Numbered from the stretch's first letter, positions 17,281-34,015 are shown. The stretch: 64,000 nt of DNA from Bacilli bacterium (GCA_017468925.1 JAFUHI010000009.1:274162-338161); one strand, 5' to 3'. Numbers and translations: made by a program. The notes: a model not told the origin generated them from the letters alone.

Positions 17281-17571
17281 ATTTATTTGAAAATGTTGTT
17301 TTTATTGGTTTTATATTCAATCCAACATAAAACAAATATCAACAAAAATTATGTAAAAATTATACATAATTTTTATAGTAAAACTCATCTCTATAATTAA
17401 ATAAATAATGTATATAAAAACCACATAAAACAACATACTAATACAACATAAATTTGCTTAAAAATGTTGGTTTTTGTGGGTTTTATGTTGGTTTTCTTTG
17501 TTTTTGTTGTTTTTTTGTGTTTGCTTTGTTTGTTTGTGTGTGTTATATTAGGCGCAGTAGGAAGAATCGAG
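17281..17571. promoter_or_regulatory. AT-rich promoter/operator region upstream of the GRE gene, with repeated ATGTTG(G/T)TTTT motifs and a GT-rich leader
   Basis: Seen directly. Copies of ATGTTGKTTTT occur at about 17284, 17464 and 17488. Reverse-complement copies (AACATAAAAC / AAAACAACAT) occur at about 17323 and 17425-17445. A roughly 100 nt stretch made only of G and T (17464-17545) precedes the RBS-ATG at 17572. Confidence 0.35.
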
Positions 17572-20100
17572 ATGCAAAAGTTTTACACAGAAAAAATCCA
17601 AAAGAGCGATCGTATAACGAGACTTGTAGATAACCTTTTCAAGAAAATGCCAGAGGTAGAAGCGGCTAGGGCTGTTTTGCTTACTGAATCATATAAGCAA
17701 ACAGAAAATGAACCAATCATTACTCGCCGCGGAAAAGCCTTTGCTCATATTCTTGATAACATTCCAATCATCATCCGCGATGAGGAATTGATTGTCGGTT
17801 CGACTACGTTAGCGCCAAGAGGTTGTCAAACATATCCAGAATTCTCCTATGAGTGGCTTGAAGCGGAATTCGACACCTTATCAACTAGGGTTGCCGACCC
17901 ATTCTATATTTCCGAAGAGACGAAGAAGACCCTCAAGGAAGTCAATAAATATTGGAAAGGCAAAACGACATCGGAACTCGCCATCTCTTACATGGATCCT
18001 AGAGCCTATACCGCTTTCTTGCATGAGATGTATACGACTGGCAATTATTTCTTCAACGGCGTTGGCCATATAACCGTCAATTATCCGAAAGTCATCAAAT
18101 ATGGATATCGCAGCATCATAAATGAGGCTTTGGAGGCCAAATCAAAATTGACTTTCTCCGATGCAGATTATCCAACTAGAATTGCTTTCTTGGATGCGGT
18201 CATAACATCGCTCAAGGCTGTTATTAGATACGCTAATAGATACAGCGAATTGGCCAAAAAGATGGCGGATGAGACAAATGATTCCAAACGCAGAGCCGAA
18301 TTATTGGAGATATCAAGAATCACCGCGAAAGTTCCTGAATATGGCGCGGAATCATTCTATGAGGCTTGCCAATCATTCTGGTTTGTCCAGCAATTATTGC
18401 AGCTTGAATCTTCAGGACATTCAATTTCCCCAGGCAGATTCGACCAATACATGTATCCATATTTCAAGAATGATTTTGATAAAGGCTTAATAACCAGAGA
18501 ATACGCTCAAGAATTATTGGATTGCATCTGGGTTAAACTCAACGATTTGAATAAATGCCGCGACTGCGTAAGCGCCGAAGGATTCGCGGGATATTCCTTA
18601 TTCCAAAACCTTATTGTCGGCGGTCAAGACGTAAACGGAGTTGATGCCACGAACGATTTGTCCTTCATGTGCATCACTGCTACAGAGCATGTCTTCTTGC
18701 CACAGCCAAGCTTCTCAATCCGCGTATGGAACGGATCGCCTCATTCATTGCTTATTAGAGCCGCTGATCTTACTAGAACCGGAATCGGCTTCCCAGCGTA
18801 TTACAACGATGAAGTCATTATTCCTCAATTAATATCACGCGGATTAAGCGTGCAAGATGCTAGAGACTATAACATCATCGGCTGCGTTGAACCTCAGAAG
18901 GCATTCAAGACCGAAGGATGGCACGATGCCGCATTCTTCAATATGTGCCGTCCACTAGAACTTGTCTTCTCCAACGGCGTTGATAAAGGCGTTCAAATCG
19001 GACCAAAGACAGGAGATGTCAGCACGTTTGATACATACGAGAAATTCGAGAACGCTTATAGAACCCAGATCAATTTCTTCATTCAATGCCTTGTCAATTC
19101 AATTAATTCAATTGATTACGCGCATAGAACCAGATGCCCATTGCCATTCGAATCATCGATGGTAGAGGATTGCATCGGTAGGGGCAAAGCCTTGCAAGAA
19201 GGTGGAGCCATCTACAATTTCTCCGGTCCTCAAGGATTTGGTGTCGCCAATATGGCGGATGCCATGTGGGCGATAAAGACACTCGTCTACGAGCAAAAGA
19301 AATACACCATCGAATTCTACAAAGAAGCGCTTGAAAACAATTATGGCGAAATGATGGATGAGCACCACGCCGAGAAATTGACCAAGGAAATTGTCAAAAA
19401 GCTCGCCGAAACTGGCAAAAACGTTAATAGAGAAGACATCATAAACATCTTCAATATGGTCAGAGAAAACAAATGCTCGCCAGAAAAGAAAGAAGCCTAT
19501 AGACGTCTAAAAGAAGACATCGAGGCTCTACCAAAATATGGAAACGACATCGAGGAGATAGACAACTTCGCACGCGAAATAACCTATTGTTATACGCGCC
19601 CGATGGAGCAATATAGAAACCCACGTGGAGGTATCTTCCAAGCGGGATTGTATCCTGTTAGTGCCAACGTGTTACTAGGTTCGCAAACCGGCCCAACACC
19701 GGATGCAAGACTTGGCTATACTCCTGTTGCCGATGGGGTCTCCCCAGCCGCCGGAAGAGATGTAAATGGACCAACTGCAGCATGTAATTCCGTCTCGCAT
19801 TTAGACCATTTCATCGCCTCAAACGGCACATTATTCAACATGAAATTCCACCCAACCGCGCTTGCGGGCACCCAGGGTTTAGAGAATTTCGTCTCTTTGG
19901 TCAGGGGTTACTTTGACCGCAAAGGCACGCACATGCAATTCAATGTCGTGTCCAGAGAGACGTTAAGGGATGCGCAAAAGCACCCAGAAAAATACAAGGG
20001 CTTAGTGGTCAGAGTTGCTGGCTATAGTGCCCTATTCACCACGTTATCCCGCGCCTTGCAGGATGATATCATAAGCCGCACCGAACAAGGAGAATTCTGA
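17572..20100 (+). CDS. Glycyl radical enzyme, probably B12-independent 1,2-propanediol dehydratase (PFL-like family)
   Basis: Has the C-terminal glycyl-radical motif RVAGYSALF and a PFL-like fold of about 842 aa. The computed ORF started at 17464 inside a G/T-only tract. The start was moved to the Met (MQKFYTEK) that is preceded by an AGGAAG ribosome-binding site. The substrate assignment is inferred from the neighbouring rhaBA genes, aldolase, PduP/PduL and BMC shell genes (GRM5-like). A choline TMA-lyase cannot be fully excluded from sequence alone. Confidence 0.85.
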   Translation: MQKFYTEKIQKSDRITRLVDNLFKKMPEVEAARAVLLTESYKQTENEPIITRRGKAFAHILDNIPIIIRDEELIVGSTTLAPRGCQTYPEFSYEWLEAEFDTLSTRVADPFYISEETKKTLKEVNKYWKGKTTSELAISYMDPRAYTAFLHEMYTTGNYFFNGVGHITVNYPKVIKYGYRSIINEALEAKSKLTFSDADYPTRIAFLDAVITSLKAVIRYANRYSELAKKMADETNDSKRRAELLEISRITAKVPEYGAESFYEACQSFWFVQQLLQLESSGHSISPGRFDQYMYPYFKNDFDKGLITREYAQELLDCIWVKLNDLNKCRDCVSAEGFAGYSLFQNLIVGGQDVNGVDATNDLSFMCITATEHVFLPQPSFSIRVWNGSPHSLLIRAADLTRTGIGFPAYYNDEVIIPQLISRGLSVQDARDYNIIGCVEPQKAFKTEGWHDAAFFNMCRPLELVFSNGVDKGVQIGPKTGDVSTFDTYEKFENAYRTQINFFIQCLVNSINSIDYAHRTRCPLPFESSMVEDCIGRGKALQEGGAIYNFSGPQGFGVANMADAMWAIKTLVYEQKKYTIEFYKEALENNYGEMMDEHHAEKLTKEIVKKLAETGKNVNREDIINIFNMVRENKCSPEKKEAYRRLKEDIEALPKYGNDIEEIDNFAREITYCYTRPMEQYRNPRGGIFQAGLYPVSANVLLGSQTGPTPDARLGYTPVADGVSPAAGRDVNGPTAACNSVSHLDHFIASNGTLFNMKFHPTALAGTQGLENFVSLVRGYFDRKGTHMQFNVVSRETLRDAQKHPEKYKGLVVRVAGYSALFTTLSRALQDDIISRTEQGEF

Positions 20101-20885
20101 TGGACGATTATCTTAAAACATCAGGAAGGATATTCGATATTCAACGATTCTCCGTCCACGATGGCCCTGGCATCAGAACGATAGTCTTCTTCAAAGGATG
20201 CTATCTAAGATGCAGATGGTGCTGCAACCCAGAAGGTCAGGAATTCTTCCCCCAGGAGCTGACGATGAATGGCAAAACCAAAACAGTCGGCAGAGACATT
20301 ACGGTGGAAGAAATCCTAGACATCGTTGAGAAAGACCGCATCTATTACAAAAGAAGCGGCGGCGGGCTCACGATATCCGGGGGCGAATGTCTAGGACAGG
20401 CTGACTTCGCTAGAGACCTTCTAAGAGGGGCTAAAGAAAGAGGCATTAACACAGCGATCGAATCAACTGGATTCGCTCCATGGGAGAAGATTGAGCCTCT
20501 AATCCCATATCTAGATGTCTATTTGATGGACATCAAACATATGGATTCCGCCAAACACAAAAGCTTCACCTCCCAACCAAACGAATTGATTCTTGAAAAC
20601 GCGAGGAAAATCGCCAAGAACTTCAAGAAATTGATCGTGAGAACGCCTGTCATCCCAACCTTCAATGACACAGAGGATGAGATAAGGGCTATAGCGAGAT
20701 ACGCCAAATCAATCGGGGTGGAGGAGATGCATTTGCTCCCATACCACAGACTAGGCAAAGACAAATATTATGGCCTTGGCAGAACATATTCCTTGGAGGA
20801 GATAGAACCTCCATCTAAAGAAAAGATGAACGCATTGCTCGACGTCGTTCTGCAAGAAGGGTTAAAAGGGCAGAAAGGAGGTTAA
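20100..20885 (+). CDS. Glycyl radical enzyme activating enzyme (radical SAM)
   Basis: 261 aa protein. Has the CX3CX2C radical-SAM motif (CYLRCRWCCNPEG) and a glycine-rich SAM site (GGGLTISGGE). Its start overlaps the GRE stop. Confidence 0.85.
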   Translation: MDDYLKTSGRIFDIQRFSVHDGPGIRTIVFFKGCYLRCRWCCNPEGQEFFPQELTMNGKTKTVGRDITVEEILDIVEKDRIYYKRSGGGLTISGGECLGQADFARDLLRGAKERGINTAIESTGFAPWEKIEPLIPYLDVYLMDIKHMDSAKHKSFTSQPNELILENARKIAKNFKKLIVRTPVIPTFNDTEDEIRAIARYAKSIGVEEMHLLPYHRLGKDKYYGLGRTYSLEEIEPPSKEKMNALLDVVLQEGLKGQKGG

Positions 20886-21265
20886 TGATGGAATTCGATA
20901 AACTTCAATCAAACGAGACGAAGACAAGGATTATTCAGGAAAGCGTTCCTGGAAAGCAAATAACGCTCGCTCATATCATCGCCAATCCAGATGAATTGCT
21001 CTATCGCAAGCTTGGGCTCGATCCGAATGTCGAATACGCATCAAAAGCAATCGGCATCATGACATTATGCCCATCAGAGACAGCGATAATCGCCGCCGAC
21101 ATATGCATGAAAGCAAGTGGTGCGAGAATGGGATTCGTCGATAGATTCTCAGGCACCGTCATCATCACCGGCACGGTATCCGAGGTCGAGGCATCGCTTA
21201 AAGCGGTCATGGAATTCTGCACTTACACATTGCGCTTCACCGTTTGCGACATAACGAAGACATAA
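20885..21265 (+). CDS. BMC shell protein, circularly permuted BMC domain (EutS/PduU type)
   Basis: 126 aa protein. The N-terminus (RIIQESVPGKQITLAHIIANPDELLYRKLGL) closely resembles the EutS/PduU N-terminal region. Confidence 0.7.
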   Translation: MMEFDKLQSNETKTRIIQESVPGKQITLAHIIANPDELLYRKLGLDPNVEYASKAIGIMTLCPSETAIIAADICMKASGARMGFVDRFSGTVIITGTVSEVEASLKAVMEFCTYTLRFTVCDITKT

Positions 21266-21711
21266 TGAGAAAAATCATATTCATAGGTCGAAGCGGCGTA
21301 GGCAAAACAACCCTCAAGCAGGCCTTGCGAAAGGAAAAAATAGAATATAAGAAAACACAATATATCGATTGGCAAGATTGGATCATAGACACCCCTGGGG
21401 AATATTGCGAAAACAAAAACCTCGGATGCGCCTTAGGTCTATACGCCTATGAGTCCGATGTCGTTGGACTCCTAGTGGCCGCCAACGAATGGTATTCCCT
21501 CTTCTCCCCGAATATGGTGGGGATGGTGAGCAGGGAATGCGTAGGGATCGTCACCAAGTGCGACTTGGCCGATCCATCTAGGGCAGAACAGTGGCTTAGG
21601 CTAACTGGATGCAAAAAAATATTCCACGTCAATTCGTTGACGGGAGAAGGAGTAGAAGAATTAATCGAATACCTCAAAATCGATAAACCTCGATATTACG
21701 ATTACGAATAA
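21265..21711 (+). CDS. EutP/PduV-family small GTPase
   Basis: Has a P-loop (GRSGVGKTTL) and a DTPGE switch. Its size and the BMC context are typical of EutP/PduV. The start was moved to the Met that overlaps the upstream stop (MRKIIFIG). Confidence 0.7.
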   Translation: MRKIIFIGRSGVGKTTLKQALRKEKIEYKKTQYIDWQDWIIDTPGEYCENKNLGCALGLYAYESDVVGLLVAANEWYSLFSPNMVGMVSRECVGIVTKCDLADPSRAEQWLRLTGCKKIFHVNSLTGEGVEELIEYLKIDKPRYYDYE

Positions 21712-21722
21712 GGAGAAAAATT

Positions 21723-22532
21723 ATGGTTATCAAAAACGAGTACGAAATCAAGAAAGAGATCTGTGAAATCGGAAAAAGGATCTACAACCGCGGTATGGTT
21801 GCCGCAAACGATGGAAACATCTCAGTCAAATTGAATGATCACGAATTCCTTTGCACCCCAACCGGTGTCTCAAAAGGATTCATGACCCCAGAAATGATCT
21901 GCAAGGTCAATGAGAAAGGCGAAGTCATCGAGGCCCGTGCCCCCTATAAGCCAAGCAGCGAAATCAAGATGCATATGCGCGTCTATGAAAGAAGAAAAGA
22001 TGTAGGCGCAGTCGTTCACGCTCACCCACTATATGCGACAACATTCGCTATCGCTGGCCAAGCTTTGACTCAGCCAATCATGCCAGAGGCCGTTATCTCT
22101 TTAGGATGTGTCCCTCTAGCAAAATATGGCAGACCATCCACTGAAGAAATTCCAGACTCCATCGAAGAATACTTGCCATATTTCGACGCAGTTCTTTTGG
22201 CACAGCATGGTGCGCTGACCTGGTCTGATACATTGCTCAATGCCTATATGAAAATGGAATCGGTCGATTTCTACGCCCAGCTTCTATATCAAACAAAGCA
22301 GATTGGCGGGCCAAAGGAATTCACCCCAGAGCAAGTCGAGGAACTTTACGAAATAAGACGCAAATTCGGCATGAAAGGAAAGCATCCTGCCAATGTCTGT
22401 TTGCGTGTCAAAGAAGGTAAGCCTTCTTGCCATGGATGTGGTGGAACATGCAAGAGCCACCCAAATACTTCAAGCTCTGATAGCGAGTTGGTTGAAGAGA
22501 TCACCAAGCGCGTCATGGCCGCACTTAAATAA
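21723..22532 (+). CDS. Class II aldolase (L-fuculose-/L-rhamnulose-1-phosphate aldolase family) with Cys-rich linker and C-terminal encapsulation-peptide-like helix
   Basis: 269 aa protein. The class II aldolase/adducin fold shows the zinc-binding His cluster (VVHAHPLYAT). About 50 extra C-terminal residues contain CHGCGGTC followed by the amphipathic SELVEEITKRVMAALK. Confidence 0.8.
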   Translation: MVIKNEYEIKKEICEIGKRIYNRGMVAANDGNISVKLNDHEFLCTPTGVSKGFMTPEMICKVNEKGEVIEARAPYKPSSEIKMHMRVYERRKDVGAVVHAHPLYATTFAIAGQALTQPIMPEAVISLGCVPLAKYGRPSTEEIPDSIEEYLPYFDAVLLAQHGALTWSDTLLNAYMKMESVDFYAQLLYQTKQIGGPKEFTPEQVEELYEIRRKFGMKGKHPANVCLRVKEGKPSCHGCGGTCKSHPNTSSSDSELVEEITKRVMAALK

Positions 22533-22543
22533 AGAAGGATTTT

Positions 22544-23023
22544 ATGAATCAGGCGGATATCAAAGAGAATGTAAGGAAGGTTGTCGAAGAATATTTTCGT
22601 CCAACCGAAGATATGACTCTTTTTTCCGCCATCCAATTAGCGAGAAAAGTCAAAGAAAAAGCGCTAGAGATGGGAGTTAACGCCGTCATCGCAATCGCCA
22701 ATAAAGGCGGAAATCCGGTATTGGTCGAATGCATGGATAATTCCTATATCGCAAGCTATGACATCGCCTTCAACAAGGCGTATACCGTAGTCGCATTAAA
22801 GATGTCGACCAAGAAACTCGCTAAATTAGCATCACCAAACGGCTCCTTATATGGCATCCAATTCACAAACGGTGGAAGGATTGTCATATTCGGTGGCGGA
22901 GAGCCTTTAGAGAATAAAAAAGGACAAATCATCGGCGGAGTCGGCATAAGCGGAGGAAGCGAAGAGCAAGATACCGCTTTAGCAGCATTCGCAAAAGAAA
23001 CATTTGAGAAAGGAGTGAATTGA
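22544..23023 (+). CDS. GlcG/DUF336 (PduO C-terminal domain-like, possible heme-binding) protein
   Basis: 159 aa protein. The DUF336 pattern includes the conserved GG...G(I/V)SG segment (IIGGVGISGGSEEQD). Such proteins are common in pdu/eut-type loci. Confidence 0.6.
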   Translation: MNQADIKENVRKVVEEYFRPTEDMTLFSAIQLARKVKEKALEMGVNAVIAIANKGGNPVLVECMDNSYIASYDIAFNKAYTVVALKMSTKKLAKLASPNGSLYGIQFTNGGRIVIFGGGEPLENKKGQIIGGVGISGGSEEQDTALAAFAKETFEKGVN

Positions 23024-23024
23024 A

Positions 23025-24233
23025 ATGGACGTCAATTCATACGAAATCGAAGAGCTTGTCAAGAAAGTACTAGGCGAGCTTAGCGGGGTAAAATCCCCAA
23101 ATAGAAGCGTCTCAAACCAAGCGATACCAACCAAAGCCCATGTCGCTTATTTGACCGCTTTGGAGAAATTCGAGGTTAAAGAGGTCGATGTTCCTCCAGT
23201 CGGCGATGACGATATTTTAGTCAAAGTTGAAGGCTGTGGAATATGCGGCACCGACGCACACGAATTCAGGAAAGATCCCTTTGGTCTTATTCCAGTTGTT
23301 TTAGGTCATGAAGGAACTGGCGAAATCATCAAAATGGGCAAGAACGTCAAGCTCGATAGCGCTGGCAAACCATTAAATATCGGCGATAAAGTCGTCACTT
23401 GCATGATCTTCAAAGATAACCCAGACATCACGATGTTTGACCTCAATAAACAGAATGTCGGAGGCGCTGATGTCTATGGTTTATTGAAGGATGACGATCC
23501 AAATAACCACCTTAAAGGCTGGTTCTCGGATTATATCCTTATAAAAGGTGGCTCCACCGTCTTCAATGTGTCGGATTTAGATTTAGAAAGCCGCATATTG
23601 ATTGAGCCATGCGCCGTTTTGATCCACGCGGTTGAAAGAGCTAAAACCACAGGAATTCTAAGATTCAATTCACGCGTTGTCGTCCAAGGCGTAGGCCCAA
23701 TTGGACTTATCTGCGTTGCGGTTTTAAGAACATTAGGCATCGAAAACATCTGCGCGGTCGATGGCAATAATAAGCGCCTTGAATTCGCTAAAAAGATGGG
23801 TGCGACCAAGACCGTCAATTTCACCGAATACAAAGGAATCGAAGCTTTATCCGGAGCAGTCAAAGACGCATTCGATGGGCATTTAGCGGATTTTGCTTTC
23901 CAATGCACCGGTGCGCCAGGAGGCCATAGCAATATCTATAAATTCATCCGCAATGGCGGAGGCTTATGCGAATTAGGCTTCTTCATCAATGGGGGAGACG
24001 CCACGATCAATCCGCATTTCGATATCTGCTCTAAAGAAATCACAATCGTCGGTAGCTGGGTCTATACCTTAAGAGACTACGCCACGACATTTGATTTCTT
24101 GAAGAGGAGCCAAGCCATCGGTTTACCGATGAAAGAGCTCATCACCCACAAATTCCCATTGGCGGAAATCAATGAAGCAATGCAGGTGAATCTACGTCAA
24201 GAAGGATTCAAGATTGCTATCGTTAACAAATAA
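23025..24233 (+). CDS. Zinc-dependent alcohol dehydrogenase (MDR superfamily) with N-terminal encapsulation-peptide-like extension
   Basis: 402 aa protein. Has the catalytic-Zn motif GHEGTGEI, the structural-Zn/CxxC region (CGICGTDAHE) and a Rossmann GxGxxG (VQGVGPIGL). About 45 extra N-terminal residues begin with the amphipathic SYEIEELVKKVLGEL, followed by a Ser/Pro linker. Confidence 0.8.
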   Translation: MDVNSYEIEELVKKVLGELSGVKSPNRSVSNQAIPTKAHVAYLTALEKFEVKEVDVPPVGDDDILVKVEGCGICGTDAHEFRKDPFGLIPVVLGHEGTGEIIKMGKNVKLDSAGKPLNIGDKVVTCMIFKDNPDITMFDLNKQNVGGADVYGLLKDDDPNNHLKGWFSDYILIKGGSTVFNVSDLDLESRILIEPCAVLIHAVERAKTTGILRFNSRVVVQGVGPIGLICVAVLRTLGIENICAVDGNNKRLEFAKKMGATKTVNFTEYKGIEALSGAVKDAFDGHLADFAFQCTGAPGGHSNIYKFIRNGGGLCELGFFINGGDATINPHFDICSKEITIVGSWVYTLRDYATTFDFLKRSQAIGLPMKELITHKFPLAEINEAMQVNLRQEGFKIAIVNK

Positions 24234-24236
24234 GGA

Positions 24237-24557
24237 ATGAATATGCATCAAGCAGTAGGAATGGTTGAAGTTTATGGACTTGTCGCAGCCTTCGCCGCAT
24301 GCGATGCCGGATGCAAAGCTGGCAACGTCACGGTAGAGAGGTTCGACAAGAACAAGCCGGCAAATGCCGATTCTTTGCCTGTCCCTCTTCTTGTATGCGT
24401 TAAATTCAGAGGTCGCGTAAGTGACGTCGAAGCCGCAGTAGAAGCCGCTTTAGATGCCGCTAAACGCGTCAGCGGGATCGTTACTTACCACATCATCCCG
24501 CAGGCTGAGGAAGATACGGAGAAGATGCTGAAATTATCAGCATTTGACGTTGATTAG
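24237..24557 (+). CDS. Divergent BMC-H (single BMC domain) shell protein with an inserted loop
   Basis: 106 aa protein. The BMC-domain core (VGMVEVYGLVAAFAACDAGCKAGNV) aligns to the canonical [25 protein letters not shown]. The canonical GSG pore motif is replaced by an insertion of about 14 aa (FDKNKPANADSLPVP). Two Cys residues (ACDAGC) are present. Confidence 0.6.
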   Translation: MNMHQAVGMVEVYGLVAAFAACDAGCKAGNVTVERFDKNKPANADSLPVPLLVCVKFRGRVSDVEAAVEAALDAAKRVSGIVTYHIIPQAEEDTEKMLKLSAFDVD

Positions 24558-24565
24558 GAGCGAAT

Positions 24566-24901
24566 ATGAGCAGGAATGCATTGGGATTCATAGAAACCTC
24601 AGGTGTAGTGGCTGCCATAGACGCTCTCGACATCATGGTCAAAAGCGCCAATGTGCGCTTCGTAACTTGGGAGAGGAAATTAGGTGGCAGACTAGTCACA
24701 ATCATCGTTGAAGGTGAAGTGGCTGCAGTCAATTCAGCGGTTGAAAACGCCTGCAATAGGTCGATAAAAAAACCGGCTGCCCACCTGGTCTTAGCTTCGC
24801 CCCACGAAGAGACATGGCGCATGGTTGAGATTAGCGCTTCTAGGCTCAAGAAGAAAGAAAAAGCTCAGCAAGAAGAAGGTTATCAAGACGTTCACTTCTG
24901 A
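24566..24901 (+). CDS. BMC-H shell protein with basic C-terminal tail
   Basis: 111 aa protein. Has a BMC domain ([25 protein letters not shown]) with an RKLGGRLV pore region. Carries a Lys-rich C-terminal extension of about 20 aa ([19 protein letters not shown]). Confidence 0.7.
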
Positions 24902-24912
24902 TAAAGGAAGGA

Positions 24913-25415
24913 AAGGAGGAGAGACAAATGGCACAACTCGAAGCATTAGGCATGGTTGAGACCAGAGGACTCGTCGCGGCTATCGAGGCCGCCGATGCCA
25001 TGGTCAAGGCTGCCAACGTGACCCTCATCGGCACCGAGAAAATCGGTAGCGGATTGGTGTCGGTCATGGTCCGCGGAGATGTCGGAGCAGTTCAAGCTGC
25101 GACAGAAGCGGGAGGCGCTAGAGCGCAAAAGCTTGGCGAAGTGATTGCGATTCACGTAATCCCACGCCCACATTCAGATGTCGAGAGGATCTTACCGACC
25201 CTCAAGCATAAAGAAGACTAAATAGGAGGAGAGACAAATGGCACAACTCGAAGCATTAGGCATGGTTGAGACCAGAGGACTCGTCGCGGCTATCGAGGCC
25301 GCCGATGCCATGGTCAAGGCTGCCAACGTGACCCTCATCGGCACCGAGAAGATCGGTAGCGGATTGGTGTCGGTCATGGTCCGCGGAGATGTCGGCGCGG
25401 TCAATGCAGCGACCG
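24913..25415 (+). repeat. Tandem direct duplication spanning the RBS and 5' ~175 nt of two pduA-like genes
   Basis: Seen directly. A block of about 190 nt including the ribosome-binding site (GGAGGAGAGACAAATGGCACAACTCGAAGC...GGTCCGCGGAGATGTCGG) occurs at 24913-25102 and again at 25223-25412. The two copies differ by a single A/G. Sequence downstream of the block has diverged. Confidence 0.9.
24928..25221 (+). CDS. pduA: BMC-H shell protein, PduA/PduJ type (copy 1)
   Basis: 97 aa protein. Canonical throughout: [55 protein letters not shown]...[14 protein letters not shown]. Confidence 0.88.
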
Positions 25416-25519
25416 AGGCTGGCGGAAACGCGGCTAGGAAGCTTGGCGAAGTGATCGCAGTCCACGTGATCCCACGCCCACACTCAGATGTCGAGAAGAT
25501 CTTACCGAAATTAGGTTAA
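25238..25519 (+). CDS. pduA: BMC-H shell protein, PduA/PduJ type (copy 2, tandem paralog)
   Basis: 93 aa protein. Its first 58 residues are identical to copy 1. The C-terminal third has diverged. Confidence 0.88.
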
Positions 25520-25589
25520 TCTTCACCTTGAAATCCCCGCCGCGACGCTTTGTTGCGGTGGGGTTATGGACACAGAAAGGAAGAAGCAA

Positions 25590-25871
25590 ATGATCGTAGG
25601 GAAAGTTATTGGTAGCGTAGTGTCTACCCGTAAAATGAACTCTTTGGTCGGAAGTAAACTTATGGTCGTTGAGCCTTTATCCGCGACCGAGGGTCCGAAA
25701 GAGAAAATCATCGCAATCGATAATATCGGTGCTGGCATCGGCGAGACAGTTTTGCTCGCTACCGGAAGCGCCGCTAGAATCGGTTCAAATATGCCTGATT
25801 CGCCAATCGATGCCGCAATAGTCGGTATCATCGACGATGAGATAGGCCTTAAAGGAGCCAATCTGTATTGA
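25590..25871 (+). CDS. BMC vertex pentamer protein (BMC-P; EutN/PduN/CcmL family)
   Basis: Has the N-terminal MIVGKVIGSVVST pattern of EutN/PduN, and is about 93 aa. The start was moved to the internal Met that is preceded by an AGGAAG ribosome-binding site. Confidence 0.75.
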   Translation: MIVGKVIGSVVSTRKMNSLVGSKLMVVEPLSATEGPKEKIIAIDNIGAGIGETVLLATGSAARIGSNMPDSPIDAAIVGIIDDEIGLKGANLY

Positions 25872-27196
25872 TGGATTTTGACGGTCTTAAACAATTGATG
25901 CGCGATAATGGCATCGTCGGTTGCGGCGGTGCTGGGTTTCCAAGTTATGCGAAACTCAATGACAAGGCAGATACCTTGATCATCAATTGCGCCGAATGCG
26001 AGCCGCTTTTGCGCTTGCATCGCCAGCTTATTGAAGTTAGGGCAAAAGAGATTGTCGAGACCGCCTCATTCATCGCAAAAACGATTGGCGCCAAAGAGGT
26101 CGTAATAGGCATCAAGGCCGCCTATAAAAAAGCGGTCGCCGCCTTAAGGAATCAAATAGGCGACTCAAATTTTGTTAGAATCCATCTTTTGCCTGAAGTT
26201 TATCCAGCAGGAGATGAATTGGTTCTAATCTATGAGACGACAAAAAGGGTGATTAGGCCAGGCCAATTGCCCGCAAGCGTCAACGTGCTCGTGTATAACG
26301 TTGAGACAATATATAACGTCTATCGCGCTTTGCATGGGCACCCTGTCACCCATAAATTCGTGACGGTCACAGGAGAAGTAAACCAGCCAGAAACATTCTA
26401 CGCCCCAATAGGAAGCAAGATATTCGGTTTGGTGAAACGCTCCGGAGGGCAGAAGATCGATGACCCAGCCTTCCTGATCGGTGGACCGATGATGGGATTC
26501 CTTGGAAGCGATCAAGACGTCGTTACCAAGACCACAAACGCCATCATTGTTTTGCCTAAGGACCACCCAGTGGTTTTAAGGAAGAAAATGAAGCCGAGAA
26601 TCGACCTAAAAAGAGCGATGGCCGCTTGCTCACAATGCAGTTATTGCACCGACATGTGCCCAAGGCATATGTTAGGCCATCCTATCGATCCAGCGGCCTT
26701 CATGAGAGTGGTCTCCAATCAAGATGCGCATAACGTAGGCCCATACCTCAACGCGAGATATTGTTCATCATGCGGGGTGTGTGAAGCTTATGCTTGCCAT
26801 CAGGGGTTATCGCCACGCATATTGCTAGGATTTGTTAAAAACAACATCCGGGCAAGCGGGATTAAATATCCAGATTATGATGGACCAGTCGTTCCAGATG
26901 AAGAAATGGATTTTAGGCGAGTTCCATTAAAAAGGCTCGTCGCCAGGCTTGATTTGGAGAAATACGCTGACCCAGCACCGATTTACGAAGAGCCAATCAA
27001 CGCGAAAGAAGTGGATATCAAATTACTTCAGCACGTTGGCAAAAAAGCAATACCAGTCGTCAAAATCAATGATCATGTTAAAGAGGGCGATATAATCGCC
27101 CATTACGATGATACATCGTTATCTGTCAATATACATGCATCGATCGATGGAACAGTGAGTGAAATCACAAGCACATACATAAGGATAAGAAAATAA
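25868..27196 (+). CDS. pduS: PduS-like RnfC-family Fe-S flavoprotein
   Basis: 442 aa protein. Has an RnfC/NqrA-like N-terminal region (GCGGAGFPSYAKL) and two Cys clusters (CSQCSYCTDMCP; CSSCGVCEAYAC) as in PduS. Lies in the BMC operon. Confidence 0.7.
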   Translation: MMDFDGLKQLMRDNGIVGCGGAGFPSYAKLNDKADTLIINCAECEPLLRLHRQLIEVRAKEIVETASFIAKTIGAKEVVIGIKAAYKKAVAALRNQIGDSNFVRIHLLPEVYPAGDELVLIYETTKRVIRPGQLPASVNVLVYNVETIYNVYRALHGHPVTHKFVTVTGEVNQPETFYAPIGSKIFGLVKRSGGQKIDDPAFLIGGPMMGFLGSDQDVVTKTTNAIIVLPKDHPVVLRKKMKPRIDLKRAMAACSQCSYCTDMCPRHMLGHPIDPAAFMRVVSNQDAHNVGPYLNARYCSSCGVCEAYACHQGLSPRILLGFVKNNIRASGIKYPDYDGPVVPDEEMDFRRVPLKRLVARLDLEKYADPAPIYEEPINAKEVDIKLLQHVGKKAIPVVKINDHVKEGDIIAHYDDTSLSVNIHASIDGTVSEITSTYIRIRK

Positions 27197-27204
27197 TAAG
27201 CAAA

Positions 27205-27756
27205 ATGGCAAAGGCAATTGGACTAATAGAATATAAGACCGTATCTAGCGGTATGACCGCCACCGATATAATGGCAAAGTCCGCGGATATCGAGATATTG
27301 CAAGCCGAGACGGTGTGTCCAGGCAAATATTTCGCATTGGTCGAAGGCGAAGTCGCCGCAGTCCAATCTGCCGTTAATGCCGCCAAAAAAGCCATCCCCG
27401 AGAAATTAATCGATGATTTTGTTTTAGGCAATCCGCATGAATCGATATTCCGCGCCATCTGGGGAACAACAGAAGTTGATCAACCTGAAGCGCTAGGGAT
27501 ATTAGAGACATATTCAATTGCCCAAGCTATTGTCGGGGCGGATATTGCCGCCAAGGCTGCAGACGTCAAACTCATCGAATTAAGGCTAGGAAGAGGGATG
27601 TGTGGAAAATCATATCTATTAATCACCGGCCAAGTGGCGGCAGTGACGATGGCTATAGAAAAGGCCAAATCCAGCGCCGGCGAATACGGTATGTATTTAG
27701 ATAGCTCCGTAATCGCTAGACCGGATATGAAGGCCTGGAGAAAATTCGTGATGTAA
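27205..27756 (+). CDS. pduT: BMC-T shell protein (tandem BMC domains), PduT type with putative Fe-S-ligating pore cysteine
   Basis: 183 aa protein with two BMC domains (IGLIEYKTVSSG...; LGILETYSIAQAIVGADIAAKAADV). Cys in CPGKYF matches the position of the 4Fe-4S ligand in PduT. Confidence 0.8.
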   Translation: MAKAIGLIEYKTVSSGMTATDIMAKSADIEILQAETVCPGKYFALVEGEVAAVQSAVNAAKKAIPEKLIDDFVLGNPHESIFRAIWGTTEVDQPEALGILETYSIAQAIVGADIAAKAADVKLIELRLGRGMCGKSYLLITGQVAAVTMAIEKAKSSAGEYGMYLDSSVIARPDMKAWRKFVM

Positions 27757-27764
27757 GGAAAATT

Positions 27765-28553
27765 ATGTTTAGTTTAGAGAGGCGAAACTTAATAATCCAA
27801 AGGCTCAATCTTGAAGGCCGCATCATCGTTTCCGATTTGTCCAAAGAATTCAATGTGACAGAAGAGACGATTAGACGCGACATCGAGAAGCTTGAGCTTG
27901 AAGGATTAGCCACCAAAACATATGGTGGTGCGGTTTCGACCAGCTCCCAAAATAGAGATTTGCCTTACAAAATAAGAAAGAAATCAAATGTAGAATCGAA
28001 ACAGAGAATCGCCGCTAGAGTCGCTCAGATGATCAACGATGGCGATCAATTGATGTTTGATGCTTCCTCGACATCTTTGTATGTCGTAAGGCAAATAAAG
28101 CATCTAAATAACATCACAATCATAACGAATTCCATCGAGATTATGTTGGAGTTAGGCGATAAAACCGGATGGAATATTCTATCGACCGGAGGATCGCTTA
28201 GAGAAGGGGCGTATTCTCTTTCTGGCTCCTCAGCCGAAAGAATGATACGCGACCACCATGTCGATTTGGCAATTTGCAGCGCCAAAGGAATAGATGGAAT
28301 TATGGGTATCACCGAAAGCAATGAGAAGGATGCTGAAATCAAAAAAGCAATCTTCTCTGCTGCGACAAAGCGAATCCTAGCGATTGACCATTCCAAATTC
28401 GATAAAATATCGTTCATCAAAGTATGCGACATCAAAGATGTCGATGTAATAGTCACAGATAAAAACCCAGGCATGGCGTGGGAGAGAAGAATCTCCGATA
28501 GCAGAGCCGAGTTGATTGTATATGGAGAAAAAAATGAGAATACTAGTAATTAA
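27765..28553 (+). CDS. DeoR/GlpR-family transcriptional regulator
   Basis: 262 aa protein. Has an N-terminal HTH (RRNLIIQRLNLEGRIIVSDLSKEFNVTEETIRRDIEKLE) and a C-terminal DeoR sugar-phosphate-binding domain. Confidence 0.8.
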   Translation: MFSLERRNLIIQRLNLEGRIIVSDLSKEFNVTEETIRRDIEKLELEGLATKTYGGAVSTSSQNRDLPYKIRKKSNVESKQRIAARVAQMINDGDQLMFDASSTSLYVVRQIKHLNNITIITNSIEIMLELGDKTGWNILSTGGSLREGAYSLSGSSAERMIRDHHVDLAICSAKGIDGIMGITESNEKDAEIKKAIFSAATKRILAIDHSKFDKISFIKVCDIKDVDVIVTDKNPGMAWERRISDSRAELIVYGEKNENTSN

Positions 28554-29733
28554 TTCAGGGTCTTCATCACTCAAATATCAATTGTTTGAGATGAATTCCG
28601 GCAAAATCCTCGCCAAAGGTTTATGTGAAAGAATCGGAACCGATGGTTTTATAACGCATAAAGTCCCAGGAAAAGAGGATTATAGCTCCTCAAAGGATTT
28701 CCCAACCCATTATGAAGCGTTAAGTGAAGTCTTCTCATTATTGGTTGATAAAGAGAAAGGTGTATTGAAATCCATCGATGAAATAGATGCGGTTGGACAC
28801 CGTGTCGCCCATGGCGGGGAAAGATTCAAAGAATCATCTATCGTCAATGAGGATATGATCTCTTATCTCGAATCAATCGTTCCAATCAACCCGCTTCATG
28901 GCCCGGCCGCCATCAAAGGTATGAAAGCCTGCCTTGAATTGCTCCCAAATACACCGCAGACAGCGACATTTGACACATCATTTTATTCTTCATTTAAGAA
29001 AAGCCGCTTTATCTATGGCTTGCCTTATGAATGCTATGAAAAAGATGGGGTTAGAAGATATGGCTTCCATGGAACTAGCCATCGTTTTGTAAGCGCCCAA
29101 GCTGCTGAATACTTAAATAAACCGATAACATCTTTAAAGATAATTACCTGCCACTTAGGAAATGGCAGTTCGATAAGTGCGGTGGAAAATGGCGTTGCCA
29201 TCGATACCACGATGGGATTCACCCCACAGGAAGGGATAATCATGGGAACAAGAAGTGGCAGTATTGACCCAACCATCATCCCTTACCTCATGAAGAAGAG
29301 AAATCTAAATCCCGATCAAATGACGGATTTATTAAATAAACAATCAGGACTTTTGGGAATAAGCGGCATTTCAAATGATCTAAGGAATTGCGTTGAAGCC
29401 GCTTCAAAAGGAAACGAGAGAGCTCAATTAGCCTTGGATATCCTAACCGACGGTGTCAAAAAATATATCGGTGGATTCGCCGCGCTTATGAATGGGCTTG
29501 ATGTATTGGTCTTCACCGCTGGAATCGGCGAGAATTCCACAATTGCTCGTGAAATGATTTGCGACAAAATGGACTACCTAGGCATAAAGATAGATAAAGA
29601 AAAGAACAATAATTTCAGAAGAGGCGTGATCGAAGATATATCTGCAGCCGATTCAAAAGTAAAAATATTAGTCATTCCTACAAATGAGGAATACATGATA
29701 GCTTTGGATACCCAAAAACTAGTCAATCGATAA
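28534..29733 (+). CDS. Acetate/propionate kinase (PduW-like)
   Basis: The MRILVINSGSSSLKYQLF N-terminus is the acetate-kinase signature. Start moved to the Met that follows a GGAGAAAAAA ribosome-binding site. Confidence 0.85.
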   Translation: MRILVINSGSSSLKYQLFEMNSGKILAKGLCERIGTDGFITHKVPGKEDYSSSKDFPTHYEALSEVFSLLVDKEKGVLKSIDEIDAVGHRVAHGGERFKESSIVNEDMISYLESIVPINPLHGPAAIKGMKACLELLPNTPQTATFDTSFYSSFKKSRFIYGLPYECYEKDGVRRYGFHGTSHRFVSAQAAEYLNKPITSLKIITCHLGNGSSISAVENGVAIDTTMGFTPQEGIIMGTRSGSIDPTIIPYLMKKRNLNPDQMTDLLNKQSGLLGISGISNDLRNCVEAASKGNERAQLALDILTDGVKKYIGGFAALMNGLDVLVFTAGIGENSTIAREMICDKMDYLGIKIDKEKNNNFRRGVIEDISAADSKVKILVIPTNEEYMIALDTQKLVNR

Positions 29734-29745
29734 GGAGGCGTTATT

Positions 29746-31197
29746 ATGGCAAACATCGATGAAAGACAAGTAAAAGAAATAATTGAACGCATTGTTAAGG
29801 AATATAAAGGGGCGGATACTACACCAAGCACCGGCTACACACCAACCTCTTACAATGGTCGTAAGTTCATCGGCATTTTTTCCGATATGAATGAAGCGAT
29901 AGAGGCAGCCAATAAAGGATATCAAGCAATCCGTTCAATGAGCGTTGAGCAAAGAGAGAAAATAATCACAGAGATTAGAAAACTTACTAGGGAAGAAGCT
30001 TGGACTTTAGCGGAGATTGGTGTTTCTGAAACCCATATGGGAAGAGTAGAGCACAAGAGGCTCAAACATATCCTTGTCGCTGATAAAACACCAGGCACCG
30101 AAGATATAGTGAGCAACGCCAAAACTGGTGATAACGGCCTCACTCTTATCGAAATGGCACCATTTGGTATTGTCGGAAGCATCACCCCATCCACAAACCC
30201 AAGCGAAACAGTCATCTGCAACTCAATCGGCATGATTGCCGCGGGGAATGGGGTCGTTTTTAATCCACATCCAAATGCGGTCTGCACATCGAACTATGCG
30301 GTTGATTTAGTCAATAGAGCTTGCAAAGCTGCAGGTGGCCCAGAGATTTTGGTCGCCTCAATGGATAAACCAACAATGGAATCGAGCGCAGTGATGATGA
30401 AACATCCTCTAATAAAATTATTGGTCTGCACAGGAGGTCCTGGAGTAGTCAAAGCCGTATTAAGCAGTGGCAAGAAAGCGATTGGGGCTGGAGCAGGAAA
30501 TCCACCTGTCATTGTGGATGATACAGCCGATATTGCTAAAGCCGCCAAAGACATAATCGATGGCTGCACATTCGATAACAACCTACCTTGCATCGCCGAA
30601 AAAGAAGTCTTCGTTTTCAACAATGTCGCTGACGATTTGATTAGAGGCATGAAAAAGGCTGGATCATATGAGATAAACCGTGCCCAAGCCGATCAATTGG
30701 CGAAAATAGTGCTTGTGTCCAAAACCGGAAAAGACGGAAAAGTAACCAAATCAGTCAATAGGGATTGCGTTGGTAGAGACGCCAAAGTCTTGCTTGAGAA
30801 AATCGGCATTCACGTTGGCGATGAGATAAGATGTATCATCGCAGAAGTTCCATTCGAGCATGATTTCGTCCAAAATGAGCTTATGATGCCAATCCTTGGA
30901 ATCGTCAGAGTCAGAAATATTGATGAAGCAATCGATCTAGCTTGCAAGGCGGAAGGAGGCAGAAGGCATTCCGCTCACATGCATTCAAAGAATATCGATA
31001 ACCTATCTAGATTCGCCAAAGCAGTAGAAACAACAATCTTTGTGAAGAATGCACCAAGTTACGCCGGCATTGGTTTTGGTGGCGAAGGCCACACGACTTT
31101 CACGATCGCTGGCCCAACTGGGGAAGGCATCACATCCGCTAAAAGCTTCACTAGACAAAGACGCTGCGTTATGGCGGATAGTTTCAGAATCATTTAA
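29746..31197 (+). CDS. pduP: CoA-acylating aldehyde dehydrogenase (PduP/EutE family) with N-terminal encapsulation peptide
   Basis: 483 aa protein. ALDH superfamily with a catalytic Cys context (FDNNLPCIAEKE). The N-terminal amphipathic ERQVKEIIERIVKEY is followed by a Thr/Pro/Ser linker. Confidence 0.85.
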   Translation: MANIDERQVKEIIERIVKEYKGADTTPSTGYTPTSYNGRKFIGIFSDMNEAIEAANKGYQAIRSMSVEQREKIITEIRKLTREEAWTLAEIGVSETHMGRVEHKRLKHILVADKTPGTEDIVSNAKTGDNGLTLIEMAPFGIVGSITPSTNPSETVICNSIGMIAAGNGVVFNPHPNAVCTSNYAVDLVNRACKAAGGPEILVASMDKPTMESSAVMMKHPLIKLLVCTGGPGVVKAVLSSGKKAIGAGAGNPPVIVDDTADIAKAAKDIIDGCTFDNNLPCIAEKEVFVFNNVADDLIRGMKKAGSYEINRAQADQLAKIVLVSKTGKDGKVTKSVNRDCVGRDAKVLLEKIGIHVGDEIRCIIAEVPFEHDFVQNELMMPILGIVRVRNIDEAIDLACKAEGGRRHSAHMHSKNIDNLSRFAKAVETTIFVKNAPSYAGIGFGGEGHTTFTIAGPTGEGITSAKSFTRQRRCVMADSFRII

Positions 31198-31221
31198 AAA
31201 GAAGGGAGTTTTGCGGGGTTT

Positions 31222-31893
31222 ATGGACCAAAAACAGATTGAAAGCATCGTTAGAGATGTTTTGAATGAATACAAAAACGGAAGCAAAATATCTACCTCTA
31301 GTGATTTTGGCGATATCCCAGTCGGCGTTTCAGCTCGCCATATCCATCTCACCCAGGAACATGTAGATATTCTTTTTGGAAAGGGATATCAGCTAACCAA
31401 ACTTAAAGATCTTTCTCAGCCAGGCCAATTCGCCTGCAAAGAACAATTGACTTTAATCGGCCCTTCCTTGAAGGCGATCGAAGGAGTGAGAGTCCTTGGG
31501 CCAGTTAGAAAAAAATCACAGGTCGAAATATCGAAAACTGACTCATTTGTCCTCAAGGTCAATCCGCCGGTCAGAGAAAGCGGCGATGTGGAGGGAAGTG
31601 CCCCAATCACCATCCTAGGGCCAAAAGGCGTAGTGGAACTTAAAGAAGGATGCATTCTCGCCAACCGTCATATTCATATGTCTCCTGCGGACGCTCAAAG
31701 ATTCGGCGTCAAAGATGGTGATTATGTAGCTACCGATACGGTTGGAAATGGAAAAAGAACAACTTTATGGGATGTCCAAATAAGGGTTTCTGACAAATTT
31801 GTGTTGGAGATGCATCTAGATACAGATGATGCAAATGCCTGTGGCATTGGAAATGGTTCCAAAGTAAAATTGATAAAGAACAAGGAGAGGTAA
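31222..31893 (+). CDS. pduL: Phosphate propanoyltransferase PduL with N-terminal encapsulation peptide
   Basis: 223 aa protein. Two PduL-repeat His blocks (GVSARHIHLTQEHVD; ANRHIHMSPADAQRFG). The N-terminus is QKQIESIVRDVLNEY followed by a Ser-rich linker. Confidence 0.8.
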   Translation: MDQKQIESIVRDVLNEYKNGSKISTSSDFGDIPVGVSARHIHLTQEHVDILFGKGYQLTKLKDLSQPGQFACKEQLTLIGPSLKAIEGVRVLGPVRKKSQVEISKTDSFVLKVNPPVRESGDVEGSAPITILGPKGVVELKEGCILANRHIHMSPADAQRFGVKDGDYVATDTVGNGKRTTLWDVQIRVSDKFVLEMHLDTDDANACGIGNGSKVKLIKNKER

Positions 31894-31898: not shown

Positions 31899-32303
31899 AT
31901 GAATAACGAAGAAGCTAGCAAATTATTATCATTATTATCAGATCCAAATCGTTTGCTTATTGTCACTTTATTAAAAGATAAGCATAAGATGGCGGCAAAT
32001 GAATTCCTTTCCTCGCTCACATGCAAGCAAGCCACCTTATCCCACCATTTAACAGAGATGGCTGGCGCAGGACTATTAACCTTCAAGAAAAAAGGGAACA
32101 AAATCTTCTATTCCATGAATAATAGGAAATTTAACGAACTACTCAATTTCCTTGGCAAACTGAGCCAAAAAGAGAAAGAAGAGATAAAAGAAGAACCTAA
32201 AGTCGAGGTCGAAGAGGAAAAGAAAGAGGTCTATCGCGTTGTCGATAGCGACATCATCAAACCAGACCCAGTCAAAATTGAACTTCCAGTCTGGCTCTTA
32301 TAA
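31899..32303 (+). CDS. ArsR/SmtB-like winged-helix transcriptional regulator with Lys/Glu-rich tail
   Basis: 134 aa protein. HTH pattern (LLSDPNRLLIVTLLKDKHKMAANEFLSSL...LSHHLTEMAGAGLL). Starts 6 nt after the pduL stop. Confidence 0.5.
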   Translation: MNNEEASKLLSLLSDPNRLLIVTLLKDKHKMAANEFLSSLTCKQATLSHHLTEMAGAGLLTFKKKGNKIFYSMNNRKFNELLNFLGKLSQKEKEEIKEEPKVEVEEEKKEVYRVVDSDIIKPDPVKIELPVWLL

Positions 32304-33297: not shown

Positions 33298-33924
33298 TTA
33301 TCTGCCTTTATTTATTCCTAACAAAGATAAGAACGAAAGGATAAATATTTTCGTGTCCAACCCAAGGCTAAGATGGGCGACATAATACGAATCAAGCCTC
33401 GCTTTTTCGTGCGGGTCGTGGCCGCGTCTCATTTTGACTTGAGCGTATCCTCCCACCCCAGGCTTAACCAAATAGGCTGATGGCTCGTAGGAAGAACGAT
33501 CTCTAATAAGCTCGCCTTCAACGTCCTCGCCTTGAGAAGGTCTTGGTCCAATGAAACTCATAGAGCCAACGAAAATATTAAATAGCTGAGGTATTTCGTC
33601 CAAGGAAGTTTTTCTGATGAATTTGCCCCATTTGGTGGTCATATCCTTTTGGGTTGCTTCCGATATGTCGCTTGGGGCGACTTGAGCAGCGTCCACCCTC
33701 ATGGAACGGAACTTAAGAAGCGTGAACATCTTTTTGTTTTTGCCAACTCTTTTTTGCTTAAAGAAAATTGGTCCTTTGGAAGTTATTTTTGTCATGACCG
33801 CACAGAAAATAATCAAAAGAGATAGCAAAATTATTGCAAAAGCCGAGCCAAATATATCAATTGCTCTTTTTACAACTAGATAGAAACGCTGACTTTTTGA
33901 AAAAGAGAATTTCATAGACAACAA
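33298..33924 (-). CDS. Bacterial sugar transferase (initiating polyprenyl-phosphate hexose-1-phosphate transferase, WbaP/CpsE C-terminal-domain type)
   Basis: 208 aa protein with one N-terminal TM helix. Has the conserved KFRSM and PQLFNIFVGSMSFIGPRP motifs of the small phosphoglycosyltransferase family. Confidence 0.75.
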   Translation of the reverse strand: MLSMKFSFSKSQRFYLVVKRAIDIFGSAFAIILLSLLIIFCAVMTKITSKGPIFFKQKRVGKNKKMFTLLKFRSMRVDAAQVAPSDISEATQKDMTTKWGKFIRKTSLDEIPQLFNIFVGSMSFIGPRPSQGEDVEGELIRDRSSYEPSAYLVKPGVGGYAQVKMRRGHDPHEKARLDSYYVAHLSLGLDTKIFILSFLSLLGINKGR

Positions 33925-34015
33925 AGATTATATGCCAAATAGTGCGGTTTTAAAATCGTCAGTTATTTCTCGGGATATGAAAACACCTTTTTAAGGTGTA
34001 TCATATCAACATCGT

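Follow-up and report, generated by a model that had tools for sequence, protein, structure and literature searches.

Putative encapsulation peptides and a conserved Cys/His module in the aldolase tail of a GRM5-type microcompartment operon from a Bacilli bacterium

A 64,000-nucleotide stretch of DNA from a Bacilli bacterium (GCA_017468925.1, JAFUHI010000009.1:274162-338161; referred to below as the window) carries a cluster of bacterial microcompartment (BMC) genes spanning ~17.5-31.9 kb. We consider it very probable that this cluster is a GRM5-type L-rhamnose/L-fucose operon in which the terminal segments of several enzymes act as encapsulation peptides (EPs), with the C-terminal tail of the class II aldolase built of three parts. 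By the published definition (Kinney 2012; Aussignargues 2015), an EP is an extension absent from non-BMC homologues, forms an amphipathic helix of ~15-20 residues, is joined to the enzyme core by a poorly conserved linker rich in small and polar residues, belongs to a locus with BMC shell genes and has a packaging role. All sequence-level properties among these (terminal extension, 15-20-residue amphipathic helix, linker and BMC-shell locus) were found here, and the assignment of the terminal segments as putative EPs of known type is supported.

A preliminary description of the window had named four cargo enzymes with such termini, and their open reading frames (ORFs) and translations agreed with the sequences quoted there. 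The aldolase (21723-22532, 269 aa) ends in ...CHGCGGTCKSHPNTSSSDSELVEEITKRVMAALK. The Zn-dependent alcohol dehydrogenase (Zn-ADH, 23025-24233) starts with MDVNSYEIEELVKKVLGEL, followed by Ser/Pro-rich SGVKSPNRSVSNQAIPTK; PduP (29746-31197) starts with MANIDERQVKEIIERIVKEY and continues with T/P/S-rich KGADTTPSTGYTPTSYNGRK, and PduL (31222-31893) with MDQKQIESIVRDVLNEY and then Ser-rich KNGSKISTSSDFGD. The span originally given, ending at 31290, covers the N-terminus of PduL and leaves the rest of that gene, to 31893, outside. The segments of the four enzymes are located as follows:

22479..22529, + strand: candidate C-terminal EP of the aldolase, aa 253-269 (DSELVEEITKRVMAALK); AlphaFold2 (AF2) helix 253-267, beyond all solved FucA structures.
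23025..23084, + strand: candidate N-terminal EP of Zn-ADH (lactaldehyde reductase candidate), aa 1-20; IEELVKKVL from aa 8, present in 72/73 related loci, periodicity 100 degrees.
23085..23132, + strand: Ser/Pro-rich linker of Zn-ADH, aa 21-36; homologue linkers A/P/S-rich and variable, closest structure 1vj0 aligning from aa 37.
29746..29859, + strand: PduP-type acylating aldehyde dehydrogenase, candidate EP (aa 1-20; VKEIIERIV from aa 9) and T/P/S linker (aa 21-38).
31222..31311, + strand: PduL phosphotransacylase, candidate EP (aa 1-17; IESIVRDVL from aa 6) and Ser-rich linker (aa 18-30).

All four segments fall outside the Pfam domain limits (aldolase 12-188, ADH from 60, PduP from 46, PduL from 33, the last being the start of PTAC). 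Homology to solved structures ended at residues 215-219 of the aldolase and started at residue 37 of the ADH, 39 of PduP (where the truncated, EP-less construct 4c3s begins to align), 31 of PduL (PDB 5cuo) and 21 of a DUF336 protein described below. A set of distant aldolases, made of cluster representatives at <50% identity, comprised 36 sequences with an EP-like tail and 54 short-tailed ones, and no EP was present in the latter. The segments are therefore extensions, as had been proposed: neither the non-BMC homologues nor any solved structure contains them.

Common to the peptides is a spacing in which positions i, i+3, i+4, i+7 and i+8 are hydrophobic and those in between polar. The stricter consensus offered earlier, E-x-x-[IV]-x-x-[IVL]-[LV]-x-x-[VL], is followed exactly by the ADH and is broken at the last position in PduP (I), at the first in PduL (Q) and at +7 in the aldolase (T). 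When 64 non-overlapping ORFs of the window (20,331 residues) were scanned for the common pattern, with matches within 20-25 residues of an end taken as terminal, 19 matches were obtained, of which six were terminal. All six lay in the BMC cluster: five in extensions (aldolase C-terminus; DUF336, ADH, PduP and PduL N-termini) and one in PduS (aa 429). The PduS match was rejected as an EP on account of its position inside the RnfC_N domain. An N-terminal match in the glycyl-radical enzyme (GRE; ITRLVDNLF) was likewise discarded, since its residues belong to the PFL-like domain (Pfam from aa 14) and non-BMC GREs align there too. Since the background, by arithmetic from the same scan, is ~0.03 per protein, five independent terminal matches in one operon are not attributable to chance.

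Amphipathic helices being frequent in proteins, their presence at the termini might be accidental. In keeping with such a chance resemblance, hydrophobic moment by itself gives no separation: several helices in protein cores of the window reach equal or higher values, and the single-sequence moment was rejected as an EP test after the core helices at GRE aa 14-27 and aldolase aa 11-24 gave equally high values. It was replaced by extension status, the positional motif scan and family periodicity. The confinement of terminal matches to the BMC cluster, the position of the segments outside conserved folds and their retention in up to 80 species, next to freely varying linkers, all speak against coincidence, which is effectively refuted by the motif scan, the conservation of the EPs across loci and the periodicity, and which we regard as scarcely credible.

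Conservation was assessed in loci retrieved by a genome scan that returned 599 aldolase relatives, the best 80 of 599, from distinct Clostridia species, being used. Shell genes were present in 75/80 of these related loci, and four more were short contigs with cargo neighbours. The helical pattern was kept in 72/73 ADH and 68/69 PduP genes. In PduL a strict regular expression detected the EP in just 18/60 genes because the pattern is shifted there (e.g. ALITKLVLEAVEK); PduL EPs were therefore judged by reading the N-termini, where amphipathic segments were visible in 60/60 related genes, and by periodicity. Across 60-73 loci the linkers of ADH, PduP and PduL varied in both length and sequence. 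Hydrophobicity averaged over each family (up to 81 sequences per peptide) peaked at 90-100 degrees for all five peptides, which corresponds to alpha and not beta structure, with values of 90 degrees for the aldolase and 100 degrees for PduL. Together with the AF2 helix at aldolase residues 253-267, these results bear out the amphipathic helices of the preliminary description, and every sequence-level test was supportive of its proposal that the peptides are of the type that targets cargo to BMC shells.

The initial count of four EP-bearing enzymes holds for each of the four and was incomplete, in that a fifth candidate and an internal insertion in the dehydratase had been missed:

22544..22603, + strand: DUF336/HbpS-like protein, EP-like helix and short linker, aa 1-20 (MNQADIKENVRKVVEEYFRP); Pfam domain from aa 25, PDB 2a2l from aa 21.
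19348..19518, + strand: GRE propanediol dehydratase, internal insertion of ~50-57 aa (aa ~594-650) with two amphipathic stretches, AEKLTKEIVKKLAETG and REDIINIFNMVREN.

The N-terminal helix of the DUF336/HbpS-like gene (22544-23023; helix MNQADIKENVRKVVEEYF, VRKVVEEYF from aa 10, periodicity peak 100 degrees) is a candidate fifth EP. It preceded the core in 51/65 related loci by regular expression and in more by eye; in three loci the DUF336 domain was fused to a PduO adenosyltransferase. The GRE insertion aligned throughout with the Roseburia inulinivorans enzyme 5i2a and was absent from the Clostridium butyricum glycerol dehydratase 1r8w; judged by this alignment, it matches the 'intramolecular EP' insertion published for GRM3/4/5 dehydratases (PMC6325248, PMC5311937).

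Two side observations concern these genes. In a Mediterraneibacter-like subset (loci L006, L013, L016, L017, L019, L023-L026, L032, L038, L047, L057, L078 and others) Cys/His motifs (HVCKCKKH, GCCGKH, HTCKCGC) occur in the stretch that joins the DUF336 EP to its domain, so that a second cargo protein has a tether rich in Cys; the window copy is devoid of such motifs. As to the GRE, a start at 17464 (878 aa) was rejected in favour of ATG 17569 (gene 17569-20100), which is preceded by a GGAAG Shine-Dalgarno sequence and yields 843 aa as in 5i2a; the 35 extra codons of 17464-17568, included by the mechanical ORF and by one public 878-aa gene call, add a spurious hydrophobic leader (MLVFVGFMLVFFVF...).

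The identity of the locus was established from its gene content:

17569..31893, + strand: GRM5-type microcompartment operon, by Pfam and NCBIfam assignments and matching gene order on independent contigs; in order, GRE, activase, PduU/EutS-like shell protein, PduV, aldolase, DUF336, Zn-ADH, 4 BMC-H, BMC-P, PduS, PduT, DeoR, AckA, PduP and PduL.

Assignments along the operon comprised PFL-like and Gly_radical domains, a Radical_SAM activase, Aldolase_II, ADH_N/ADH_zinc_N, Aldedh, PTAC, PduS-type domains, 5 BMC-H-type genes, EutN, PduV, DeoR and AckA. Six BMC-domain genes (PF00936), one of them the tandem-domain PduT with Cys38, and one EutN gene make up the shell complement of the window; apart from PduT, the shell genes lie at 20885-21265 and 24237-25871. 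Directly 5' lie a RhaB-like kinase gene and then rhaA (+ strand; Pfam, NCBIfam). The GRE (PF02901 and PF01228) belongs to the 1,2-propanediol dehydratase clade with the ~60-aa insertion and aligned end to end with the R. inulinivorans diol dehydratase 5i2a (1264 bits). The activase (261 aa, PF04055) lacks the pfam00037 ferredoxin insert, a trait described for GRM5 (PMC6325248). An aldolase (PF00596) and a Zn-type ADH (PF00107/PF08240) both lie inside the locus, and PduP matched the fucose-BMC enzyme structure 4c3s of Clostridium phytofermentans (568 bits). PduS and PduT are both encoded and GrpU is not, the GrpU motif G-x-C-P-Q-N/H having no match in the window, whichever frame was read; the PduU/EutS-like shell protein (TLCPSE) was considered as a GrpU and rejected, since its Cys is off the pore position and that motif is absent. 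These features correspond to the published GRM5 gene set (PMC6325248, PMC4207490, PMC3557285).

The locus thus resembles the GRM5 loci of C. phytofermentans and R. inulinivorans in its GRE with insertion, ferredoxin-less activase, class II aldolase, Zn-type ADH (pfam00107/08240), PduP, PduL, PduS with PduT, DeoR, DUF336 and lack of GrpU. It differs from them in coming from an uncultured organism, the aldolase's best species-level genome match being 78% identical, and in having rhaB/rhaA directly upstream and ackA inside the operon; of the 80 related loci, just 8 had AckA within their flanks. An identical aldolase was present on seven metagenome contigs (one of 572 kb) with the gene order kept. 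Judged by its predicted gene products, the locus is a textbook GRM5 glycyl-radical microcompartment for fucose/rhamnose and a metagenomic addition to the known GRM5 set.

Pathway knowledge suggests how the cargo would work together. The class II aldolase would cleave rhamnulose-1-phosphate or fuculose-1-phosphate to dihydroxyacetone phosphate and lactaldehyde, the Zn-ADH would reduce lactaldehyde to 1,2-propanediol, and the glycyl-radical dehydratase would convert this to propionaldehyde, to be processed by PduP, PduL and AckA. With aldolase, ADH, dehydratase, PduP and PduL acting in sequence, both lactaldehyde and propionaldehyde would stay inside the compartment. The EP set of the locus would consist of five terminal peptides (C-terminal on the aldolase; N-terminal on DUF336, Zn-ADH, PduP and PduL) and the internal insertion of the dehydratase. 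Each EP would form a 15-20-residue amphipathic helix on a flexible linker serving as a tether and, by analogy with PduP, PduD and PduL, may dock on the luminal side of the shell hexamers, associate with one another, or both, condensing the cargo for enclosure. The FucA tetramer has C4 symmetry, from which it would follow that the aldolase tetramer shows four tethered EPs on one face.

The terminal helices could instead drive nothing but cargo-cargo aggregation, a coiled-coil-like self-association which nucleates the core and involves no direct contact with the shell. Direct binding of EPs to the shell has been shown in the Pdu system for PduP and PduD, which argues against so restricted a role. 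The removal of EPs improves solubility, and EPs may aggregate luminal enzymes (PMC6325248, PMC4594438); the presence of five or six EP-bearing proteins per operon would also favour a multivalent network. The present data are compatible with aggregation as well as with shell binding, and on balance we consider aggregation as the sole function somewhat doubtful.

Beyond its terminal helix, the aldolase tail was found to have an internal organisation of its own. The tail consists of a Cys/His module that follows the FucA core directly, then a hypervariable spacer, and lastly the candidate EP:

21723..22376, + strand: class II (FucA-type) aldolase core, aa 1-218; PF00596 at aa 12-188, PDB FucA structures aligning to 215-219.
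22377..22451, + strand: Cys/His module, aa 219-243 (GKHPANVCLRVKEGKPSCHGCGGTC), H221-x4-C226-x9-C236-H237-x-C239-x3-C243.
22452..22478, + strand: hypervariable spacer, aa 244-252 (KSHPNTSSS); most frequent residue 21-42% per column, frequent indels.

Column statistics were drawn from 121 sequences, i.e. the window copy and its 120 closest homologues (70-91% identity), all 120 of which were full length including the tail. In the core, E80, H99, H101 and H162 were invariant and mean conservation was 87%. In the module, G219, H221, P222, A223, C226, G232, C236, H237 and C239 were 100% conserved and C243 96%. In the EP, I260 and T261 were invariant and K262, V264 and L268 were conserved at >=95%. 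The CxxCxxxC motif noticed earlier was confirmed as C236, C239 and C243, and a fourth Cys is located at 226. Of this region, described earlier as a Cys-rich linker, the spacer at aa 244-252 alone has the linker character of the EP definition; aa 219-243 form a strictly conserved module, departing from that definition, and are not a mere linker. The module motif was present in all 80 species loci, as H-x4-C-x9-C-H-x-C in 70 and with a shorter first spacer in 10, and among the former a further Cys followed three residues on in 57/70.

Cysteines also recur in more distant tails. Among the 36 distant EP-tailed aldolases, two of which adjoin EutN/BMC genes, a Cys was present no more than 20 residues from the core end in 30/36 and a CxxC motif in 19/36, often as CxxCxxC and once as CxxCxxCxxCP, compared with 6/54 and 1/54 of the short-tailed aldolases; Cys made up 4.1% of residues in the tails of the former and 1.8% in their cores. 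Because the module is invariant in relatives, lies beside a hypervariable spacer and has counterparts in the Cys of distant tails, it appears to be a real and selected feature, apparently undescribed so far. It has at least 3-4 conserved Cys/His ligands in compact spacing, and putative metal binding, of Zn (His/Cys3 or Cys4) or an iron-sulphur (Fe-S) cluster, is plausible and the most economical reading; the preliminary description had suggested that the stretch could bind a metal or, alternatively, form disulfides. No entry of Pfam (E<=10), NCBIfam or PDB matched the module in searches with the isolated tail, the PDB returning only weak matches (E 0.1-0.4) to designed helical repeats resembling the EP helix. 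We suggest tentatively that the module and the CxxCxxC motifs of distant EP-bearing aldolases represent a genuine metal centre (Zn or Fe-S) on the tether of a non-redox cargo enzyme.

Could the tail as a whole have another purpose? It might mainly serve the regulation or oligomerisation of the enzyme itself in a metal- or redox-dependent manner, e.g. as a Cys/His ligand set reaching the neighbouring catalytic Zn, or a structural Zn/Fe-S site, with the terminal helix serving that purpose and not targeting. The module is indeed more conserved than the core and starts exactly at the canonical FucA C-terminal end, and in Escherichia coli FucA a mobile C-terminal tail is located where the active site opens. 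Tailed aldolases situated away from shell genes, described below, also agree with it. We nevertheless judge it unlikely: the aldolase helix has the pattern seen at the N-terminus of four further cargo proteins of the operon, 75/80 close relatives sit in shell loci, and module and helix are parted by a spacer which is hypervariable, rich in indels and of low predicted confidence (AF2 pLDDT, predicted local distance difference test, <50 across residues 239-252, in a model whose core was modelled well), as expected of a tether. Regulatory and targeting roles are, moreover, compatible with each other.

Several points weigh against the reading of the tails as encapsulation peptides in a GRM5 compartment. 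Targeting is deduced from sequence. The AF2 model, run on the aldolase only, came from a shallow alignment of 66 sequences (>=70% identical), and its confidence was moderate for the terminal helix (pLDDT 63-71) and ~60 for the module, which showed no likeness to a characterised metal-binding fold or family. In the survey of 2015 the iron-type alcohol dehydrogenases of BMCs showed no obvious EP, and BMC proteins apart from the signature and core enzymes were said to be without EPs (PMC4594438). Finally, two sets of tailed aldolases were found away from shell genes. At locus L051 (9947-10798), an aldolase of GRM5 type, its Cys/His module and EP both complete, had no BMC or cargo gene within -10/+4.8 kb. 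A 48%-identical aldolase, P0143 (loci L087, L091, L092, L093), has a CTNCGAC (CxxCxxC) tail and an amphipathic C-terminal helix, and its operon, encoding a RhaA-like isomerase, an epimerase, the aldolase, a PfkB kinase, an ABC transporter, DhaK/L and an FGGY kinase, had no BMC genes within +-10 kb on three contigs.

It follows from L051 and P0143 that the tail is not strictly limited to shell-adjacent genes. The earlier expectation that homologues outside BMC loci would be free of it thus held for the solved homologues and the short-tailed aldolases, and failed for these two. Such genes may be satellites to compartments whose loci lie elsewhere; alternatively, they may point to a function of the tail that does not depend on the shell. 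The neighbours of the L051 aldolase were a helicase, a TtcA-like protein, a hydrogenase-like protein, hrcA and grpE.

A large part of the EP set was expected from the literature. C-terminal EPs have been reported on 21/23 BMC class II aldolases, covering the PVM, PVM-like and GRM5 types (Aussignargues et al. 2015, PMC4594438), and later catalogues added ACI and SPU5 aldolases (PMC8217296, PMC11585597); such a peptide is the rule for these five types and is not unusual, contrary to the preliminary description. The same survey placed EPs at the N- or C-terminus of aldehyde dehydrogenases and at the N-terminus of phosphotransacylases (PMC4594438). The EPs proposed for ADH and DUF336 rest on the present analysis, because the 2015 survey saw none on iron-type ADHs and none outside the signature and core enzymes; reviews treat the GRM5 lactaldehyde reductase as encapsulated. 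EPs on GRM5 enzymes are reportedly predicted by Zarzycki et al. 2015. Apparently new here are the conserved Cys/His module of the aldolase and the DUF336 and Zn-ADH peptides, EPs in GRM5 being otherwise published.

Compared with known systems, the peptides share with those of PduP and PduD (Salmonella Pdu) and of PduL/PTAC the i, i+3, i+4, i+7, i+8 pattern and a poorly conserved linker after it, and for PduP and PduL the enzyme families as well; the difference is that the pattern here also occurs on a Zn-dependent medium-chain dehydrogenase/reductase (MDR) ADH and on a stand-alone DUF336 protein. The aldolase EPs surveyed in 2015 were C-terminal helices of ~17 residues after an extension of 23-81 residues, and here 34 residues precede a 17-residue helix. 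That survey described the aldolase linker as having no conservation of composition or sequence, yet its table gives 5.5% Cys, the highest of all linkers (PMC4594438); in the GRM5 clade, by contrast, the first 25 linker residues are the invariant Cys/His module. Among BMC-associated Fe-S proteins, the pore Cys of PduT, the G-x-C-P-Q-N/H motif of GrpU and the tetracysteine tail of PduK are similar in being short Cys clusters on flexible extensions and in belonging to the 'redox-replete' type of organelle. Unlike these shell proteins, the aldolase is a non-redox cargo enzyme, its module having the spacing H-x4-C-x7-9-C-H-x-C-x3-C and a putative cofactor.

Some observations on the surroundings were made in passing. 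Read from its TTG at 28516, the acetate kinase ORF shares 38 nt (28516-28553) with the end of the DeoR gene, and an internal Met (MRILVINSG...) is a likelier start. Between the genes for RhaA and the GRE, 555 nt of AT-rich DNA (17014-17568) contain a terminator-like hairpin after rhaA and, past the hairpin, repeated TGTTGGTTTT / AAAACAACAT words which may be DeoR operator sites; a Rfam scan of the whole window gave no RNA family. Judging by their translations, 3' of pduL lie an ArsR-like helix-turn-helix protein (31899-32303) and an alpha/beta hydrolase-like protein (32397-33296), and 'a hydrolase' is listed among the GRM5 ancillary genes (Axen et al. 2014). Further downstream, 33298-40566 resembles a polysaccharide-synthesis cluster unrelated to the EPs, with a sugar transferase, large polytopic O-antigen polymerase/ligase-like proteins, a flippase-like protein and an NAD-dependent epimerase/dehydratase.

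The main result re-identifies published biology; it confirms the annotation of the locus and adds little to it. The presence of EPs of their own on DUF336 and Zn-ADH argues that both are luminal cargo, as opposed to piggy-backing proteins or cytosolic helpers, and the DUF336 peptide would constrain models of the still unexplained role of this protein in B12-independent compartments. The aldolase 'linker' holds an apparently selected Cys/His module which earlier surveys took as unconserved. Should a metal centre exist on the tether, it could couple assembly, activity or encapsulation of the aldolase to metal or redox state or, alternatively, dock on an open coordination site of a shell Fe-S cluster, e.g. 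that of PduT, and a metal-bearing tether would be an unrecognised metallo-component of glycyl-radical and other aldolase-type microcompartments. If it binds metal, the module would bear on the design of synthetic EP tags from aldolases, and on how signature enzymes are assembled or regulated in the oxygen-sensitive organelles of gut Clostridia.

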